Assembly: GCA_002438625.1 (NCBI GenBank)
Contig: DJPS01000043.1
Location: 1-28,287, forward strand
DNA length: 28,287 bases
Direction of reading: 5' to 3'
Source of the DNA: Christensenella sp. UBA6406
GTDB taxonomy: Bacteria; Bacillota; Clostridia; Christensenellales; UBA1242
Each line of letters opens with the position of its first letter. The stretch's first letter is position 1. This document shows positions 758 through 28,287 of the stretch, piece by piece. The position numbers and the translations under genes were made by a program. The notes under the pieces are model-generated. The model searched no databases. It saw only the letters and a list, made by a program, of their open reading frames with translations, and was not told where the DNA came from.

Positions 758-781
758 GCTAAAAACAAAAGAAATAAGAAG

Positions 782-818
782 CATTGAAACTTTTAAAAAG
801 TGGTTTCAATGTTTTTTT
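782..818 (+). terminator. Rho-independent terminator downstream of the LRR gene
   Basis: A 9-bp perfect stem (cattgaaac 782-790 pairs with gtttcaatg 803-811), a 12-nt loop, then T7 at 812-818. Confidence 0.8.
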
Positions 819-825
819 GTTGTGG

Positions 826-1250
826 GAAATGTGGAGTGGGATTAAAAGTGCGGTTGACTGTAAAAGAAATAAAAATGTAAATCTGCTTTATTGTTTTTGT
901 TAGGCTAAAGGCTTGTTATGGGCGGAAATGGGTGTTGAGCGAAAGTGTGCGGAGCGAACGGTTTGCGGGAGCGGTTGGGGTTGGGTTTGTTTGGGCGTGT
1001 GTGTGGGTGTTGTGGGATGTGGGGAGCGGAAGGAGTTCGCACGGCTTTGCATCTGTCGCAAGGGCGAGCGGGTTTGGGTAGCGTGGGGGTATGTAAGTGT
1101 TGTGGCGGTTAAGTGATTGATTTGGGGGTTATGGAGATTAGGGGCAGAGATTGAGATTGGGCGAAAATGTCTGGGGTTAGCGGTGCGTTTGTGAATGTGA
1201 TTGCTAAGTCTATGGTGAGTGATTTTAGTGCATAGAAAATGTTGGGGCTG
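826..1250. repeat. GC-rich, G/T-skewed island 1, an inverted diverged copy of the island at 19435-20128
   Basis: Hand count over 941-1100 gives 78 G, 18 C, 43 T and 21 A (60% GC, 76% G+T) in an otherwise AT-rich window. Four colinear sequence anchors are shared with 19632-19842 on the opposite strand (see findings). ORFs here appear in several frames only because stop codons are rare in this composition. Confidence 0.7.
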
Positions 1251-1765
1251 TAAATATCATTATTAATTAATATTGCAACTTTTCCTAATCGGGTTTGATA
1301 GGTTGAAAGATTAAATTTTTTTTCAATGTCGCCTTCTTCATAAATATCAGTTAATGTGCCATTTGAGATTATTGCAACTGCACCATTTGTTGTTGATTGA
1401 ATTGTCTGTTGTACTTTTTGCTTCTTTATTAGTGGAACCATTGTTTCATCTGTTTGTGATTGACTTTCTTGTGTGTTTTGTTTTGGATTTAATGTGGGTT
1501 GCAAAATGTGAATAGCGTTATTTTCATAAAAAGTTTTAGTATTCATTTCATTTAAGTTTTTATTTGGTTCTGTGTTATTGTAGCATAATGTGAAATATGA
1601 AAAAATTAAGCAATTCAAATTTGTGGAAAGGCTGGTAAGGTAAGAGATTAAGTTGCTATCAAATATTGTTTCCGCTTGTTCTTTTGTGTCTTTTAAGTAG
1701 CAAAATATTATATCACTTTGTTTATATTCTATATCTTTCAAATTATTAACATATTGAATTAGCAT
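1109..1765 (-). CDS. Hypothetical protein; the 3' end runs into GC-rich island 1 and may be truncated
   Basis: A 218-aa ORF with AT-rich codon usage like its neighbours. The segment VAIISNGTL...YQTRLGKVAILINNDIYSPNIFYALKSLTIDLAITFTN loosely resembles the region around the catalytic Cys of carbon-nitrogen hydrolases (G-x-[IV]-G-x-x-IC-Y-D-x-x-F-P), but Cys is replaced by Asn. The last ~45 codons (about 1109-1250) lie in island sequence of a quite different composition. Confidence 0.4.
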   Translation of the reverse strand: MLIQYVNNLKDIEYKQSDIIFCYLKDTKEQAETIFDSNLISYLTSLSTNLNCLIFSYFTLCYNNTEPNKNLNEMNTKTFYENNAIHILQPTLNPKQNTQESQSQTDETMVPLIKKQKVQQTIQSTTNGAVAIISNGTLTDIYEEGDIEKKFNLSTYQTRLGKVAILINNDIYSPNIFYALKSLTIDLAITFTNAPLTPDIFAQSQSLPLISITPKSIT

Positions 1766-15528: not shown

Positions 15529-15620
15529 GGAGAGTTACCCAAGAGGCCGAAGGGGCGTCCCTGCTAAGGATGTAGTGGTGTTAAAAGCCAGCGAGAGTTC
15601 AAATCTCTCACTCTCCGCCA
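15529..15620 (+). tRNA. tRNA-Ser (anticodon GCU), type II with long variable arm and encoded CCA
   Basis: Hand-folded: acceptor GGAGAGT/ACTCTCC, anticodon stem CGTCC/GGATG with loop CTGCTAA (anticodon GCT), a long variable arm, T arm GAGAG-TTCAAAT-CTCTC, discriminator G, then CCA. Confidence 0.95.
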
Positions 15621-19400: not shown

Positions 19401-19434
19401 ACACGTAGCACGAATTAACGCAATGCAATTATAT

Positions 19435-20128
19435 AAGCGGAATCGCTTACGCTAAAAATGGATCAAGTTGCCGTTGAAATTGCTTAAAAGCAATTTGGCT
19501 TGCAAATAGCAAGCAAGCCCTTTGCTCAAAAGCAAAGCAACGGCAATTAAGTGGGGTGCGGAAACACCGCAACCGCAAGCCCGCCCCGCAAATAAATTTG
19601 CGTGCCCGCCTGTGCTTGTCCGTGCCAGCGTTTCCGCCCCCACAAAACTCGCTCCGCTCACGACCGCTCTCGCACAGGGTAGGCAAGCCCCGCTCACGCT
19701 CGCTTGCCCCTTCGCTTTCGCTAACCGTTCGCTCCGCTCGCTCTTTAGCCCGCATCCAACTTCACCCAAAAGCCAAAGCAACCCTTTAAACGCACCCACA
19801 GTCGTTCCCAAAGTAGAACCGCAGTGCTCCACTCTCCGCATTGCTTAAATAAATATAGAATAGAAGCGAAATCGCAAAAAGCAAGTTTTTGCTTAAAATA
19901 AATAGATATTTAAAGCAGAACCGCTCCGCTAAGAATGATTGAAAGGGTTGCTCGCCCCAAGTGCGGATAAAGGCGAATCCTAGCCCTCATACACGCCCGT
20001 CTGCGTTTCACACACTCAACAACTCACACACGCCACTAAAACCCAATCGCCTTTGCCATTACACTTGACTGCTCGCTCAACCCGTTTTTGCCTAGCGTTC
20101 ATTTCCTACAATAAAACCATTAAGCAGA
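19435..20128. repeat. GC-rich, C-skewed island 2 (hairpin cluster, C-rich block 2a, AT-rich linker, C-rich block 2b)
   Basis: Hand count over 19561-19800 gives 102 C and 44 G in 240 nt (61% GC). Over 19921-20100 it gives 63 C and 32 G in 180 nt. The island shares colinear anchors with the reverse complement of 826-1031. Four mutually overlapping ORFs on both strands are composition artefacts. Confidence 0.7.
19466..19548 (+). other. Predicted compact four-way junction (cloverleaf-shaped) element; RNA or ssDNA structure of unknown function
   Basis: The closing stem ttgccgttg (19468-19476) pairs with caacggcaa (19538-19546). It encloses three abutting hairpins: 19477-19496 (8 bp), 19497/8-19514/19 (6-7 bp) and 19520-19537 (6-7 bp). 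Each is built on TTGC-(A-rich loop)-GCAA. Confidence 0.45.
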
Positions 20129-20369
20129 AAGCTCTAAACAAAGCAAAATTAGGTTAAAAAACTTAATAAAAAATATAAATTAATTAAGTCAAATTCACAA
20201 AAACTTATCCACTTTTTATGAGAGGATGTGGATAAGATGAAAAGACAAAAATTGCAAAAGTTGTACAAAAATGGAGGATGAAACACTAAAAAAGGGTAGA
20301 AAATTAAAAATTTTGCAACTTTTTCAAAAAAGAGCCGAAAATGCTTGACAAAAGGCGGGGGACAAGATT

Positions 20370-21011
20370 TTGGAAGTTGGTGCAGGAACAGGAAGATATT
20401 CTTTGCACTACGCTGAAAAAGGTTTTAATGTTACTGCTATTGAATTTATTGAGCATAATTTGGATGTGCTTAAATCGCACGTAAAAGATGGAATGAAGAT
20501 AAAGGCAGAGCAAGGGGATGCGGTTGACTTGTCTAGGTTTGATGATAATGTTTTTGATGTTACGCTAGTGCTAGGTCCGCTTTATCATTTATATAGTGAG
20601 GATGAGCAAAGAAAAGCAATAAGTGAAGCAATTAGGGTTACGAAAAGTGGTGGAGTGATTATGATTGCGTATATACCAAATGATAGTGTAATGATTAATT
20701 GGGGTCTTGGCGAAAATATTATAAAAGGTAAGGGCATTGAGTTTGATGAAAATTTTAGGTTCTTTAATAATGAAAATAATATTTTTGCAACTTTTTGCAT
20801 AAGTGAATTTATGCATATGATGAATGGTTTTAAAGTAAAATATTTGCACAATGTTGCAACTGATGGATTTTCTGCGTGCCTTAAAGATAAAGTTAATGAA
20901 CTAACAGATGAGCAGTTTAAAGAATGGGTTAGATATCATTTATCAGTTTGCGAAAGAGAAGATATGTGTGGGGTTAGTGCTCATATGTTGTACATATGTA
21001 AAAAAGAATAA
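20370..21011 (+). CDS. Class I SAM-dependent methyltransferase, probably 5'-disrupted (candidate pseudogene spanning about 20237-21011)
   Basis: SAM motif I (ILEVGAGTGRYS) sits at the very N-terminus of the ORF-track call, which uses a TTG start. The same frame continues upstream as MEDETLKKGRKLKILQLFQKRAENA-[TGA 20346-20348]-QKAGDKILEVG. An RBS-preceded ATG at 20237 is in another frame. The downstream motifs (VLGPLYHL, GGVIMIAYI) are intact. Confidence 0.6.
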   Translation: MEVGAGTGRYSLHYAEKGFNVTAIEFIEHNLDVLKSHVKDGMKIKAEQGDAVDLSRFDDNVFDVTLVLGPLYHLYSEDEQRKAISEAIRVTKSGGVIMIAYIPNDSVMINWGLGENIIKGKGIEFDENFRFFNNENNIFATFCISEFMHMMNGFKVKYLHNVATDGFSACLKDKVNELTDEQFKEWVRYHLSVCEREDMCGVSAHMLYICKKE

Positions 21012-26910: not shown

Positions 26911-28287
26911 TTATTTACCTAAGCAAAATTTGCTGAATATTGAGTCAATCACTTCTTCGGTTATAACTTTACCTGTAATGTTGGCAAGATTATTCCACGC
27001 TTCTTTAATGTCTAATGTAATGCAATCTAAACTTGTTTTGCTAATGCTGTTAATGGCTTGACCTAAATTGTCGCTTGCCATTTTTAATGCCTCTAAGTGT
27101 CTTTGATTTGTTATAAGTAGGGCGGAAGCATTAAAATCTTTACCTAGTGTTAAATTGTATAGCAAATTTTTTAATTTATCTATATTTTCGCTATTTTTAG
27201 CGGATATTTCTATTGTATTTAAAATATTGCAACTTTTTGGTAAATCGGTTGTATTGAATTGATTTTCTTTTGCATCAATTTTATTTATTACTAAAATTGT
27301 TGGGGTTGTGTAGTCTTCAACAAGTTCAAATATCTTTTTATCTTCGGCATTTATTTTGCGACTGGCATCAACAATAAGCAATATAATGCTACTTGATTTT
27401 ATTTGGTTTATTGCCCTTTCAATTCCTATTGATTCTACAATATCAGTGGAGTTGCGGATGCCTGCTGTGTCGCATATGTTAAATTTTACGCCTTTAAATG
27501 TAAAACTATCTTCTATGCTATCTCTTGTTGTGCCTGCAATGTCAGTTACAATCGCTCTATCATAGTTAAGTAAAGCATTCAATAAACTGCTTTTTCCCAC
27601 ATTCGGCTTTCCAATAATTGCTATATTTATGCCACTTTTTAACATTCTTCCACTTTTATTTGTTTCAATTAAAGCATTTATGCTTGAAAGAACACTTTCA
27701 AGTTTTATTTTTATTTGCTTTTCCGTTGTGTATTCAATGTCTTCTTCTGGATAATCAAGTGCGACTTCAATTTCTGCTAAAATGTCGGTTAGTGTGCTTT
27801 GATTTTTTTCCAATTCTTGCCTTAGTTTTCCGTTTGCTAGGTTAAAGTTGGCGGAAAGTTCGGCTTCGCTATCTGCATTAATTATATCAATTATGCCTTC
27901 TAAGCTATCAAGTGATTGCTTGCCATTTAAAAATGCACGCTTAGAAAATTCTCCACGATTTGCAAGTCTACAACCAAACTCTAAGCATCTTTTAAGTGCA
28001 AGGTCGGTTAAGGCTATGCCACCATGCAAATGAAGTTCAACAACATCTTCTCCCGTAAAAGAGTGGGGTGCTTTAAAATAAACTGCAAGACATTTGTCTA
28101 TGCCGTTTTCTAATTCTACATCACTTAAATACATATGCCTTGCTTCAATTTGTGTGCGTGTTTTGAAGGCTGTTATAAATTTCTTTGCTATGTTTAATGA
28201 TTCTTTGCCACTTATCCTAATTATAGATATACCAGCAATAGAGTTATTGCTGGTAGCTATGGCACAAATTGTGTCGGTATCTTTCAT
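26911..28287 (-). CDS. mnmE: tRNA modification GTPase MnmE (TrmE)
   Basis: MKDTDTICAIAT...GISIIRISG at the N-terminus, G1 motif GKPNVGKSSLLN, DTAGIR, NKID, and the C-terminal FCLGK tetrapeptide. The start codon coincides with the last base of the window. Confidence 0.95.
   Translation of the reverse strand: MKDTDTICAIATSNNSIAGISIIRISGKESLNIAKKFITAFKTRTQIEARHMYLSDVELENGIDKCLAVYFKAPHSFTGEDVVELHLHGGIALTDLALKRCLEFGCRLANRGEFSKRAFLNGKQSLDSLEGIIDIINADSEAELSANFNLANGKLRQELEKNQSTLTDILAEIEVALDYPEEDIEYTTEKQIKIKLESVLSSINALIETNKSGRMLKSGINIAIIGKPNVGKSSLLNALLNYDRAIVTDIAGTTRDSIEDSFTFKGVKFNICDTAGIRNSTDIVESIGIERAINQIKSSSIILLIVDASRKINAEDKKIFELVEDYTTPTILVINKIDAKENQFNTTDLPKSCNILNTIEISAKNSENIDKLKNLLYNLTLGKDFNASALLITNQRHLEALKMASDNLGQAINSISKTSLDCITLDIKEAWNNLANITGKVITEEVIDSIFSKFCLGK

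Follow-up and report, generated by a model that had tools for sequence, protein, structure and literature searches.

A C-rich, modular array of non-coding repeats downstream of spmB in an uncultured low-GC gut Clostridia lineage

Composition and module structure of island 2

The window, the whole 28,287-nt stretch of DNA analyzed here, has a GC content of 32% and contains two islands of different composition. Island 2 spans positions 19428-20128 on the 3' side of spmB. It is non-coding, with a GC content of ~50-60% versus 32% for the genome and about twice as much C as G. Base composition over 19435-20128 is 28.5% A, 31.3% C, 18.6% G, and 21.6% T, and between 19550 and 19850 C makes up 39.5% and G 19.9%. 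The original prediction had counted 102 C in 240 nt, which we reproduced at 19600-19839 (102 C, 46 G). The methyltransferase gene 3' of island 2 carries an in-frame TGA and looks damaged; TGA recoding was rejected as the cause, because in other parts of the lineage long ORFs end at TGA.

We located the short words on which the original prediction was based. The motif described as recurring three times, CGCTCCGCT, has exactly three copies in the window (19650, 19730, and 19922; 0.00 expected from shuffles), and the words described as bracketing the modules are TAAGCGGAA at 19434, AAAGCAGAA at 19912, and TAAGCAGAA at 20121. An extended word, AAGCRGAAHCGC, has six matches in the window with at most one mismatch (0.41 expected), four of them co-oriented within island 2. 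The word said to be shared with island 1 is present there as AAGCAGA on the reverse strand at 882-888. Tandem Repeats Finder returned only one 9-nt, two-copy repeat. The Bacillus-type Chi word AGCGG is enriched on the G-rich strand, an enrichment inseparable from plain sequence conservation within the family described below.

Two independent ENA assemblies contain the island 2 sequence with 100% identity across both junctions, and a one-sample artefact is therefore excluded. An ORF inside the island is recorded on five contigs, one of them an NCBI record. Two Logan contigs end at window position 19457, 22 nt into the island, as expected because the sequence is multi-copy.

Alignment with related arrays and structure prediction divided the islands into the following modules:

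19435-19466 (+), START motif of the first unit: AAGCGGAATCGCTTACGCTAAAAATGGATCAA, which includes the dyad AAGCGG-AA-YCGCTT
19467-19547 (+), head, a perfect four-way junction: outer stem GTTGCCGTTG/CAACGGCAA(T) around three hairpins, with zero unpaired junction bases
19553-19642 (+), core, a 90-nt imperfect hairpin closed by GGGTGCGGAAAC / GTTTCCGCCCCC
19643-19810 (+), C-rich, CGCTC-rich tail: conserved unit end ...CCCTTTAAACGCACCCAC..GTTCCCA, holding CGCTCCGCT twice
19811-19850 (+), T unit: AAGTAGAACC, hairpin GCAGTGC-N10-GCATTGC, and TTAAATAAAT, with a G.U pair and a degraded T-run
19851-19911 (+), AT-rich linker module: GCGAAATCGC, hairpin AAGCAAGTTTTTGCTT, and AAAATAAAT
19912-20120 (+), B2 unit: START (19913-19943), TTGCTCGCCCCAA, stem-closed loop, then CTTGACTGCTCGCTC (20064-20078)
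19969-19975 and 20048-20054 (+), B2 closing stem, AAAGGCG / CGCCTTT, enclosing a 72-nt C/A-rich, G-poor variable loop
20121-20134 (+), truncated START or T remnant at the end of the GC-rich part: TAAGCAGAAAGCTC, which aligns with AAGCAGAAACGCAATGC of T units
20135-20236 (+), AT-rich 3' module, tentatively assigned to the family: terminates with two DnaA-box-like words in inverted arrangement (CTTATCCAC...GTGGATAAG) and lies beyond the span originally predicted
881-1215 (-, the C-rich strand), island 1, the second array: U3-type unit, CCGTTCGCTCCGC tail, and T remnant

The hairpins noted originally at the head of the island are confirmed. The head folds with a minimum free energy of -39.1 kcal/mol (z = -6.6). 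It is kept at six loci with its stems fixed and its loops variable: 12/64 paired columns vary versus 10/17 unpaired columns (Fisher p = 0.002). For the core hairpin, z is -5.5 (+ strand) and -6.0 (- strand), and ~82 nt of it are near-invariant among six to seven copies from different loci. The START motif heads the head unit at six independent loci in the alignment and also opens B, U3, and T units in other arrays, and the C-rich tail has 80-90% identical homologs in L005, L006, L008, L009, L010, and L017a.

T units (n = 7) resemble intrinsic terminators on the C-rich strand only, with a 7-bp stem, a T-run, and a 10-nt loop that exceeds what the consensus terminator scanner accepts. Six of the seven consist of GCAATGC-N10-GCATTGC followed by TTTTATTTTATTT; the window copy has GCAGTGC and TTAAATAAAT instead. 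The T-unit fold reaches -9.8 kcal/mol (z = -2.8). The AT-rich linker of the original prediction is real, and the same linker (GCGGAACCGCAAAAAACAAGTTTTTGCTAAAAATAAAT) sits before a START motif in L006, L010, L019, and L017a, so it is a member of the family and not flanking DNA. The B2 unit has an nhmmer match at 19944-20081 (E = 6e-29). Among 11 aligned B units the loop is the most variable part, and subtype B1 has another closing stem (CCGTTC/GAACGG) in the same place as that of B2. Island 1 terminates in a remnant similar to that of island 2, AAGCAGATTTACATTTTTATTTC. The AT-rich 3' module matches the DNA that follows the L016 array on its 3' side (87% identity, 101 nt). Of six similar TTATCCACA...TGTGGATAA palindromes in ~154 kb, four follow an array (window, L015, L016, and L017b), at a distance of 77-265 nt on its 3' side.

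A family of related arrays

Using the spurious in-island ORFs as probes, we found copies at other loci. In all, ~13 non-redundant related arrays were recovered from further intergenic positions, on metagenome contigs that come from this organism and its sisters; island 1 is counted among them. Comparison of the arrays by blastn and nhmmer gave identities of 75-93%, with E-values as low as 1e-79. The ~13 also include two arrays of the same genome, on a second contig (L017) from the window's own sample. Island 1, with 44% G and 9% C on the + strand, has an nhmmer U3 match at 952-1074 (-) with E = 1e-31 and is 86% identical to L007 over 121 nt; the proposed link between the two islands is thus one of homology in inverted orientation. 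A neighboring ORF also takes its final codons and its stop from island 1. Within the window, G-quadruplex candidate motifs are confined to island 1; many arrays are without any, and a G-quadruplex function is unsupported.

Arrays are 0.3-1.1 kb long and intergenic, and they occur in either orientation relative to genes. Each is a co-oriented, head-to-tail string of units, most of which open with AAGCRGAAYCGC. The unit vocabulary comprises H (head and core hairpin), B1/B2 (stem-closed C/A-rich loop), U3, T (terminator-like), and AT-rich linkers. Units of the several types measure 50-480 nt, the stem-closed C/A-rich, G-poor loops are 66-85 nt, and many arrays end without a T unit. A modular, mosaic repeat family had been suggested from the window, and the copies bear this out: the bracketing words are the starts of the ~30-nt motif that opens most units. 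Homology between arrays starts at START, with none further upstream.

The overlapping ORFs called within island 2 exist but are spurious, with no Pfam match. The homologous "proteins" P0002-P0008 switch frame along the alignment, and 1-2-nt indels fall inside the best-conserved block of the arrays, the core; we therefore rejected a protein-coding gene. An exhaustive protein search (1.84 billion representatives) returned only one true relative. Exact scans with an invariant word from the core, of 22 nt for GTDB species genomes and JGI metagenomes and of 19 nt for IMG/VR, gave no match in any of the three, and blastn against phages and plasmids gave no match to the island. Rfam 15 covariance models gave nothing above noise at both islands and five further arrays in L015-L019, under conditions in which E-value mode detected a control tRNA-Ser (50 bits) and gathering mode missed it. 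The original statement that no known element matches fits the outcome in all these Rfam, phage, plasmid, viral, GTDB, and JGI collections. Island 2 is one copy of an undescribed non-coding modular repeat family of a rare, uncultured low-GC gut Clostridia lineage.

Other element classes did not fit. We found no convincing terminal inverted repeats or target-site duplications at the arrays; one weak 13-nt inverted pair (85% complementary) was not reproduced at other copies, and the other inverted repeats are internal hairpins. The arrays are thus not MITEs, as they have neither matching ends nor flanking direct repeats and their units run head-to-tail. No transposase, recombinase, or reverse transcriptase gene was found in ~150 kb of host sequence. 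A CRISPR array was rejected because the units, 50-480 nt and of several types, show no such periodicity, and group II introns, retrons, and IS605 guide RNAs were rejected because there is no Rfam match and the neighbors are housekeeping genes.

The nearest catalogued relative, L012, has an SpmB 73% identical to that of the window and keeps the order rsmA-tatD-spmA-spmB. Its site after spmB is unoccupied, with 158 nt of 14% GC and one ordinary-looking terminator hairpin. No family member was found by nhmmer in relatives L012-L014, and SpmB used as a probe in JGI metagenomes found no relatives, leaving L012 as the closest empty site.

Close strains differ in unit content at single loci, as judged from contigs several of which are short, low-coverage metagenome assemblies, possibly chimeric within repeats. 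L006 and L009 have flanks 97-99% identical and differ by the head, present in L009 and missing from L006, and by a T-linker-B block; their cores are only 89% identical. L010 and L011 differ only in an 80-nt patch and in a smaller one immediately upstream of it. The L010 patch was found again at a different locus (L016_828), and L015 combines both patch types as a mosaic. In L007 the head is cut to a single hairpin and the body is inverted relative to L010 against the same flank, a difference that may be an assembly artefact. Islands in L017 and L018, two genomes 99.74% identical, show no turnover. Targeted hypermutation of the DGR (diversity-generating) type at the L010/L011 patch was rejected: the differences are indels and all substitution types, the variants are common to other loci, islands are unchanged between the 99.74% identical genomes, and no reverse transcriptase gene lies among the neighbors examined.

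Changes from the consensus occur at 0.055 per GC site (GC to AT) versus 0.068 per AT site (AT to GC). These rates correspond to an equilibrium near 55% GC, not to decay toward 32%, which suggests that the GC content of the arrays is maintained.

Orientation relative to genes varies across the family. Among six arrays between co-directional genes, the C-rich strand is sense at one, the window copy, and antisense at five, a bias with a two-sided p of about 0.2 at these six loci; arrays also occur between convergent and divergent genes. The original observation, in which the C-rich strand has the sense of the gene upstream, therefore holds for island 2 and fails for the family. The sole sense array lies upstream of the methyltransferase gene with the in-frame TGA.

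Origin and function of the arrays

Our preferred reading, to which we assign about an even chance, is that islands 1 and 2 are copies of a lineage-specific, non-coding interspersed mosaic repeat that is reshuffled by recombination between copies. The family would have arrived in the lineage and then spread as a selfish or near-neutral element, with ectopic gene conversion and unequal exchange between copies continually reshuffling and homogenizing the arrays. GC-biased conversion during recombination could help to keep them GC-rich. The conserved hairpins would be the constrained part and may be recognized as single-stranded DNA (ssDNA) or RNA by a partner. The L006/L009 block differences, the L010/L011 patch, and the sharing of that patch across loci argue for turnover by recombination, and the fixed stems and variable loops of the head argue for hairpin constraint. 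Against turnover stand the unchanged islands of L017 and L018; against mobility stand the absence of an enzyme gene in ~150 kb, of terminal inverted repeats, and of target-site duplications. Movement of the arrays is inferred, not seen, because no precise empty/filled pair at near-identical flanks was found.

As part of this mosaic-repeat reading, an array would halt transcription entering on its C-rich strand, given the terminator-like hairpin and long G-poor, C-rich loops found there. Island 2 would then end the spmA-spmB transcript and insulate the damaged-looking methyltransferase gene. The five of six antisense arrays are the expectation if sense insertions are polar and selected against. 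The weakened T-run of the window T unit counts against a termination role. An orientation-dependent termination effect at the spmB locus is plausible from these sequence features.

A purely DNA-level selfish repeat or biased conversion leaves the C/G asymmetry and the strict co-orientation of units unexplained. The first alternative, which we consider possible though unlikely, is that the arrays are modular non-coding RNA genes on the C-rich strand, starting at or near START, ending at the T-unit terminator, and using a hairpin scaffold to present unstructured, C-rich 66-85-nt loops. Such an RNA might be a multi-site antisense regulator of G-rich ribosome-binding sites or a decoy for Rho or a KH-domain protein, and the same genome encodes a protein with a Rho N-terminal domain. 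Structured RNAs are classically sought as GC-rich islands of AT-rich genomes (Stav et al. 2019, PMC6429828), and the arrays are GC-rich islands in a genome of that type. The asymmetric composition and co-orientation of all units suggest a single-strand function. The hairpin with T-run in six of seven T units is on the C-rich strand only, and the G.U pair of the window T hairpin falls on that strand. The conserved head stems with varying loops, the near-invariant 82-nt core, and the sustained GC content are also consistent with an RNA. The START motif of L015 is a 10/12 match to a sigma-70 promoter (TTGAAA-16-TAAAAT), but promoter-like matches are no commoner in the arrays than in shuffles, giving no conserved promoter, and homology begins at START with none upstream. 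Further points against RNA genes are the arrays that end without a T unit, the absence of an Rfam match, and the differences in unit content between close strains at one locus, which would be odd for a needed RNA. No RNA covariation is available in the conserved head and core, where the test is powerless because the conserved parts hardly vary.

Rather unlikely, in our view, is a non-autonomous ssDNA mobile element whose four-way head and 90-nt hairpin are recognized by a trans-acting HUH/Y1-type transposase, modeled on REP/REPIN with RAYT or on IS200/IS605-derived palindrome-associated elements. Insertion of new units beside START sites already present would yield the tandem, co-oriented arrangement. 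IS200/IS605-type elements have no terminal inverted repeats or target duplications, a strand-specific architecture, and co-oriented tandem units, and the arrays share these properties. At the DNA level their hairpins are perfect, and the two strands fold equally well. Between L006 and L009 the head comes or goes as one discrete block, and the single-hairpin head and opposite body of L007 against the flank it shares with L010 point the same way, but the L007/L010 difference may come from assembly. Against this alternative, ~150 kb of host sequence contains no Y1/HUH transposase gene, and we could identify no conserved cleavage tetranucleotide; the arrays are also far longer than REPs and mostly non-palindromic.

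It is likewise rather unlikely that the arrays form a new class of bacterial element acting as a single strand, either as a long C-rich RNA or through re-inserting RNA or ssDNA copies. As RNAs, START-to-T transcripts would carry Rho-sized C-rich loops on a conserved hairpin scaffold and could serve as a decoy or trap for Rho or a KH-type protein, or as a multi-seed regulator. As mobile elements, an RNA or ssDNA intermediate would re-insert beside its own START motif; the conserved 5' word and the A-rich or terminator-type 3' ends would mark the ends of that intermediate.

The suggestion in the original prediction of a dedicated Rho-utilization (rut) site, or a long terminator of the spmAB operon, is very unlikely. 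Known rut sites are ~60-90 nt, C-rich, G-poor, and poorly structured, on one strand. The G-poor loops of 66-85 nt are near this size, the C-rich, G-poor strand is sense 3' of spmB, the compact terminator hairpin of L012 is missing after spmB in the window, and the genome encodes the protein with a Rho N-terminal domain. At the window locus the C-rich, G-poor tract is thus placed as a rut site would be, but across the family it is not: because the C-rich strand is antisense at five of six co-directional sites, the family cannot be a dedicated Rho-dependent terminator for spmB. It also lies between convergent and divergent genes, nothing of it follows spmB in L012, and 700 nt with conserved hairpins far exceeds what a rut site needs. 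As a family-wide explanation, a dedicated spmAB rut site is largely refuted.

There is hardly any chance that misassembly, a chimeric contig, or contaminating high-GC DNA produced the islands: repeats break assemblies, two Logan contigs stop at 19457, and many related contigs are short, but the identical ENA assemblies cross both junctions, the in-island ORF recurs on five contigs, homologous arrays sit inside long contigs (20-113 kb) amid ordinary low-GC genes, and the family's own AT-rich linkers interleave with its GC-rich units.

Even if only a selfish mosaic repeat, the family is unusual: it has 50-60% GC where the genome has 32%, and its C and G contents differ two- to five-fold. With a GC content that seems to be maintained, it lends itself to testing GC-biased gene conversion versus selection in bacteria. 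In practice, the arrays break metagenome assemblies of the lineage, seed spurious ORF calls on both strands, and supply gene ends. If the single-strand features reflect function, the arrays would be a new kind of RNA or ssDNA element in spore-forming gut Firmicutes.

Comparison with known systems

Several known systems share some features of the arrays. Yeast mitochondrial GC clusters are mobile, hairpin-forming palindromes of 30-60 nt in the AT-rich spacers of an AT-rich organelle genome. Like them, the arrays are GC-rich, hairpin-forming repeats scattered through an AT-rich genome; unlike the arrays, the clusters have no strand asymmetry or tandem unit grammar. The arrays share with rut sites C-rich, G-poor, poorly structured tracts on one strand. 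Rut sites, however, are not conserved repeats and are defined relative to the transcript they terminate, whereas the arrays are conserved repeats mostly antisense to their co-directional neighbors.

REP units are 20-40-nt palindromes with a conserved 5' tetranucleotide, as in enterobacterial REP/BIME, and REPINs are mobilized by RAYT transposases. Like REP/BIME, the arrays are an intergenic mosaic of conserved palindromic units and short motifs, in either orientation and GC-richer than their surroundings. Unlike REP/BIME, their conserved palindromic modules (83 and 90 nt) make up only a minority of the array, and ~150 kb of host sequence contains no RAYT or Y1 gene.

BOX of Streptococcus pneumoniae, with RUP and SPRITE, belongs to the intergenic, multi-copy small interspersed repeats (Croucher et al. 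2011, PMC3049150). BOX is modular (boxA-boxB(n)-boxC): internal units vary in number, extensive secondary structure is predicted, and large copies create spurious ORFs on both strands (PMC3049150). Repeats of this type are limited to one species group, are missing from other relatives, and were read by those authors as parasitic elements with slow turnover (PMC3049150). The arrays likewise are intergenic, multi-copy, non-coding, modular, structured, accompanied by spurious ORFs, and lineage-restricted; their modular grammar, ~13 arrays, and restricted distribution place them with BOX-like modular interspersed repeats by description, as a resemblance of kind only. We know of no sequence relationship between the two. 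Unlike BOX, the arrays are much longer (0.3-1.1 kb), reach 50-60% GC in a 32% GC genome, and are strongly C/G-asymmetric with every unit co-oriented, and where BOX has one long hairpin, they hold a four-way junction and large unstructured C/A-rich loops.

Architecture of the array downstream of spmB

The window has a GC content of 32% and carries housekeeping genes of the ordinary kind for a low-GC Firmicute (dus, a cardiolipin-synthase-like PLD gene, mnmG, metG, degV, rsmA, tatD, spmA/spmB, dapA, and mnmE). No credible gene lies in the ~970 nt from the spmB stop codon (19400) to the methyltransferase open reading frame (ORF; 20370). Island 2, the array in this gap, is 50% GC across 19435-20128 and 60% GC at 19550-19850, with about twice as much C as G. 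The original prediction described a hairpin head, an AT-rich linker, overlapping ORFs, three bracketing words, and AAGCAGA on the reverse strand of island 1 (a second array at 881-1215, minus strand), all of which we confirmed. The CGCTCCGCT triplet was likewise found, with three occurrences in the window versus 0.00 expected from shuffles. The finding is real, and the proposed modular, mosaic repeat family was the right idea.

The head is more striking than first described. Positions 19467-19547 form a perfect four-way junction, in which a 10-bp outer stem encloses three hairpins and every junction base is paired. Directly after it comes the core, a 90-nt imperfect hairpin (19553-19642), and both parts fold far better than shuffles on both strands.

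Along the C-rich strand, each array is a series of units, and the majority of units open with a ~30-nt START motif (AAGCRGAAYCGCTYMCGCT..ATGAWT). The motifs are co-oriented within each array without exception, and the AT-rich linkers between units are conserved too.

Unit types of the repeat family (C-rich strand)
H: START, four-way head, 90-nt core hairpin, and CGCTC-rich tail ending in ...TTAAACGCACCC..GTTCCCA
B1 and B2: TCGCTCGCCCCAA, short closing stem (B1, CCGTTC/GAACGG; B2, AAAGGCG/CGCCTTT), loop, and CTTGACTGCTCGCTC; the loop is 66-85 nt, C/A-rich, G-poor, unstructured, and highly variable
U3: the type found in island 1
T: AAGCAGAAAC and GCAATGC-N10-GCATTGC, then TTTTATTTTATTT in 6/7 cases; resembles an intrinsic terminator, and does so only on the C-rich strand

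Units of island 2
19435-19810, plus strand, H
19811-19850, plus strand, T
19851-19911, plus strand, linker
19912-20120, plus strand, B2
20121-20134, plus strand, truncated START

On the 3' side of island 2, an AT-rich module (20135-20236) is 87% identical to DNA 3' of the array on contig L016; two DnaA-box-like words, forming an inverted pair, close the module. Because this module is shared and such palindromes follow other arrays, the element may extend beyond 19435-20128. The inverted pairs (TTATCCACA ... TGTGGATAA, flanked by an A-run and a T-run) occur at 20205-20236 in the window, L015 6582-6605, L016 45-76, L017 9844-9875, and L006 326-357; four of the six palindromes found lie 77-265 nt beyond an array's 3' end on the C-rich strand. 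They could be a further family module, bidirectional terminators, or DnaA sites near the origin.

Two other motifs recurred. Similar terminator hairpins, GCATTGAAAC...GTTTCAATGC followed by a T-run, stand at several gene ends (window 781-815 and the flanks on L008 and L006), possibly another small recurrent motif of the genome. ATTTTGCAACTTTTT occurs three times in the window (20303-20324, 20775-20796, and 27217-27238; 86-91% identical), with one copy inside the methyltransferase ORF.

Family members at other loci

Island 1 contains 44% G and 9% C on the plus strand and has a 30-nt inverted match in common with island 2. A 218-aa ORF without a Pfam match (1109-1765, minus strand) enters island 1 by ~35 codons, so the repeat provides its C terminus and stop codon. 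Since gene callers put ORFs into stop-poor DNA like the arrays, we used a spurious 129-aa ORF (19452-19841, minus strand) as a probe against a collection of 5.8 billion proteins. It returned seven "homologues," with frames that switch along the alignment. Their contigs place the sequence at the rpsL, acyltransferase/kinase, and rnhB sites and at further loci, with 75-93% DNA identity to island 2 in alignments of up to 640 nt. Two later searches added the long contigs L015, L016, L017/L018, and L019; L017, which derives from the window's own sample, holds two more arrays.

Genomic positions of arrays
L005: upstream of rpsL
L006/L009: between an acyltransferase gene and a PRK-family kinase gene
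L008: near rnhB
L015: between gerA and glyS
L016: upstream of murG
L017: one upstream of rplS; one between a uvrD-like helicase gene and a gene encoding a Rho N-terminal domain
L019: among pilin genes

With nhmmer models of four unit types, 15 arrays (~13 non-redundant), island 1 included, were counted in ~154 kb of sequence. A weak T-box leader match on L015 (8435-8591, minus strand; 37 bits, under the gathering score), upstream of the glycyl-tRNA synthetase gene, is unrelated to the family; a T-box leader is expected for such a gene.

A 22-nt invariant core word was absent from 185,579 GTDB species genomes and from JGI metagenomes, a 19-nt one was absent from IMG/VR, and blastn gave no match in phages or plasmids. 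Searched exhaustively with HMMER, using the plus-strand ORF as query, 1.84 billion representative proteins yielded one true relative. Judged by these searches, the family is rare and restricted to the lineage. The GTDB genome closest by SpmB (73% identity) is L012, a roe-deer colon Clostridia MAG in which the gene order rsmA-tatD-spmA-spmB is conserved. Downstream of its spmB, only 158 nt of 14% GC follow, containing a terminator-like hairpin that is AT-rich and a stretch resembling a promoter, so the comparison yielded an empty site. No family member was detectable by nhmmer in L012 or the other relatives, L013 and L014.

Constraint and turnover

Across six to seven copies at different loci, the core hairpin hardly changes over its first 82 nt, and the tails of these copies differ by 10-25%. 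Within the head, fixed stems contrast with variable loops (variable columns, 12/64 paired versus 10/17 unpaired; P = 0.002); covariation analysis, with too little variation, gave one compensatory pair, which did not exceed shuffles. Changes off the unit consensus, in a rough calculation from few copies with subfamily structure, amounted to 0.055 per GC site versus 0.068 per AT site. This lack of A/T bias suggests that the family is near its own equilibrium of ~55% GC, not decaying to 32%. GC-biased gene conversion (Lassalle et al. 2015, PMC4450053) could cause high GC in an often-recombining repeat. It leaves the C/G asymmetry unexplained, and this asymmetry is our main reason for keeping single-strand (RNA or ssDNA) readings.

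Copies at one locus also differ, on contigs several of which are short and low-coverage and could be chimeric within repeats. L006 and L009 represent a single locus, with flanks 97-99% identical and cores only 89% identical; of the two, only L009 carries the head and only L006 a T-linker-B block. The L010 and L011 sequences come from separate studies; they match perfectly across ~1,000 nt plus another 108 nt, and diverge at about half of the positions of an 80-nt patch within the B2 loop, as well as in a shorter patch immediately before it. The 80-nt patch is not new mutation, since its L010 version is found again at another locus (L016) and L015 combines the two versions as a mosaic; exchange between copies would be the simplest cause. 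L007 has a flank in common with L010, its body reversed and its head cut to one hairpin. The islands of L017 and L018 (99.74% identity, 20.6 kb) show no excess change, so turnover is episodic rather than continuous. Two Logan contigs terminate after the first 22 nt of island 2, a break to be expected when an assembly graph runs into multi-copy sequence. Beside the L010/L011 array, AT-rich non-coding DNA of the 5' flank holds two 97-nt direct repeats (82% identical; 71-167 and 226-321, reverse-complement coordinates), which may be a separate small repeat family.

Orientation and comparison with known elements

The C-rich strand had been described as the sense strand of the upstream gene. This holds at island 2 and fails family-wide: of six arrays between co-directional genes, this one has the C-rich strand as sense and the other five (L005, L008, L015, L017a, and L019) have it antisense; the rest of the arrays sit between genes that converge or diverge. 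The family is therefore no dedicated rut site serving the gene upstream. The C-rich strand does pair a terminator-like unit with G-poor loops comparable in size to known rut sites, and a protein bearing a Rho N-terminal domain is encoded in the genome (on L017). On a parsimonious reading, transcription entering an array on the C-rich strand would stop there, and sense insertions within operons would be selected against, leaving an antisense excess, which at six loci is not significant.

The sole sense copy, island 2, precedes a methyltransferase frame (20271-21011) that seems to begin at ATG 20271 (MEDETLKK...) and meets an in-frame TGA at 20346, immediately ahead of the SAM-binding motif ILEVGAGTG; gene callers place the start at TTG 20370. 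The window's 23 long ORFs end in TAA (19) or TAG (4), never TGA. Since TGA terminates long ORFs elsewhere in the lineage, we set recoding aside; the gene is probably a pseudogene or shortened.

No Rfam family matched the arrays. Gathering mode reported nothing for the whole window, even omitting tRNA-Ser(GCT) (15529-15620), and its negatives need care; ARAGORN and Rfam E-value mode (50 bits, threshold 29) both saw this tRNA. A protein-coding origin and a CRISPR array were both rejected, the former because frames switch between copies and no Pfam family matched. A diversity-generating retroelement was rejected because the L010/L011 patch versions are common to other loci. Classic REPs probably do not describe the family, whose conserved palindromic modules span 83-90 nt and make up only part of each array, and MITEs were dismissed for want of target duplications and convincing terminal inverted repeats. 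No transposase, recombinase, or reverse transcriptase was found in ~150 kb of host sequence, G-quadruplex motifs were not general across arrays, and promoter-like matches in arrays were at chance level.

We can only infer the family's function and mode of spread. The closest known kind is the modular interspersed repeat, exemplified by the BOX elements of pneumococci, which are judged parasitic (Croucher et al. 2011, PMC3049150). Like them, the family is intergenic, lineage-restricted, and structure-rich and spawns spurious ORFs; enterobacterial BIMEs offer a second comparison. Unlike either, it is distinguished by its GC content, strand asymmetry, strict co-orientation, and array length, and by a four-way head and large C-rich loops.
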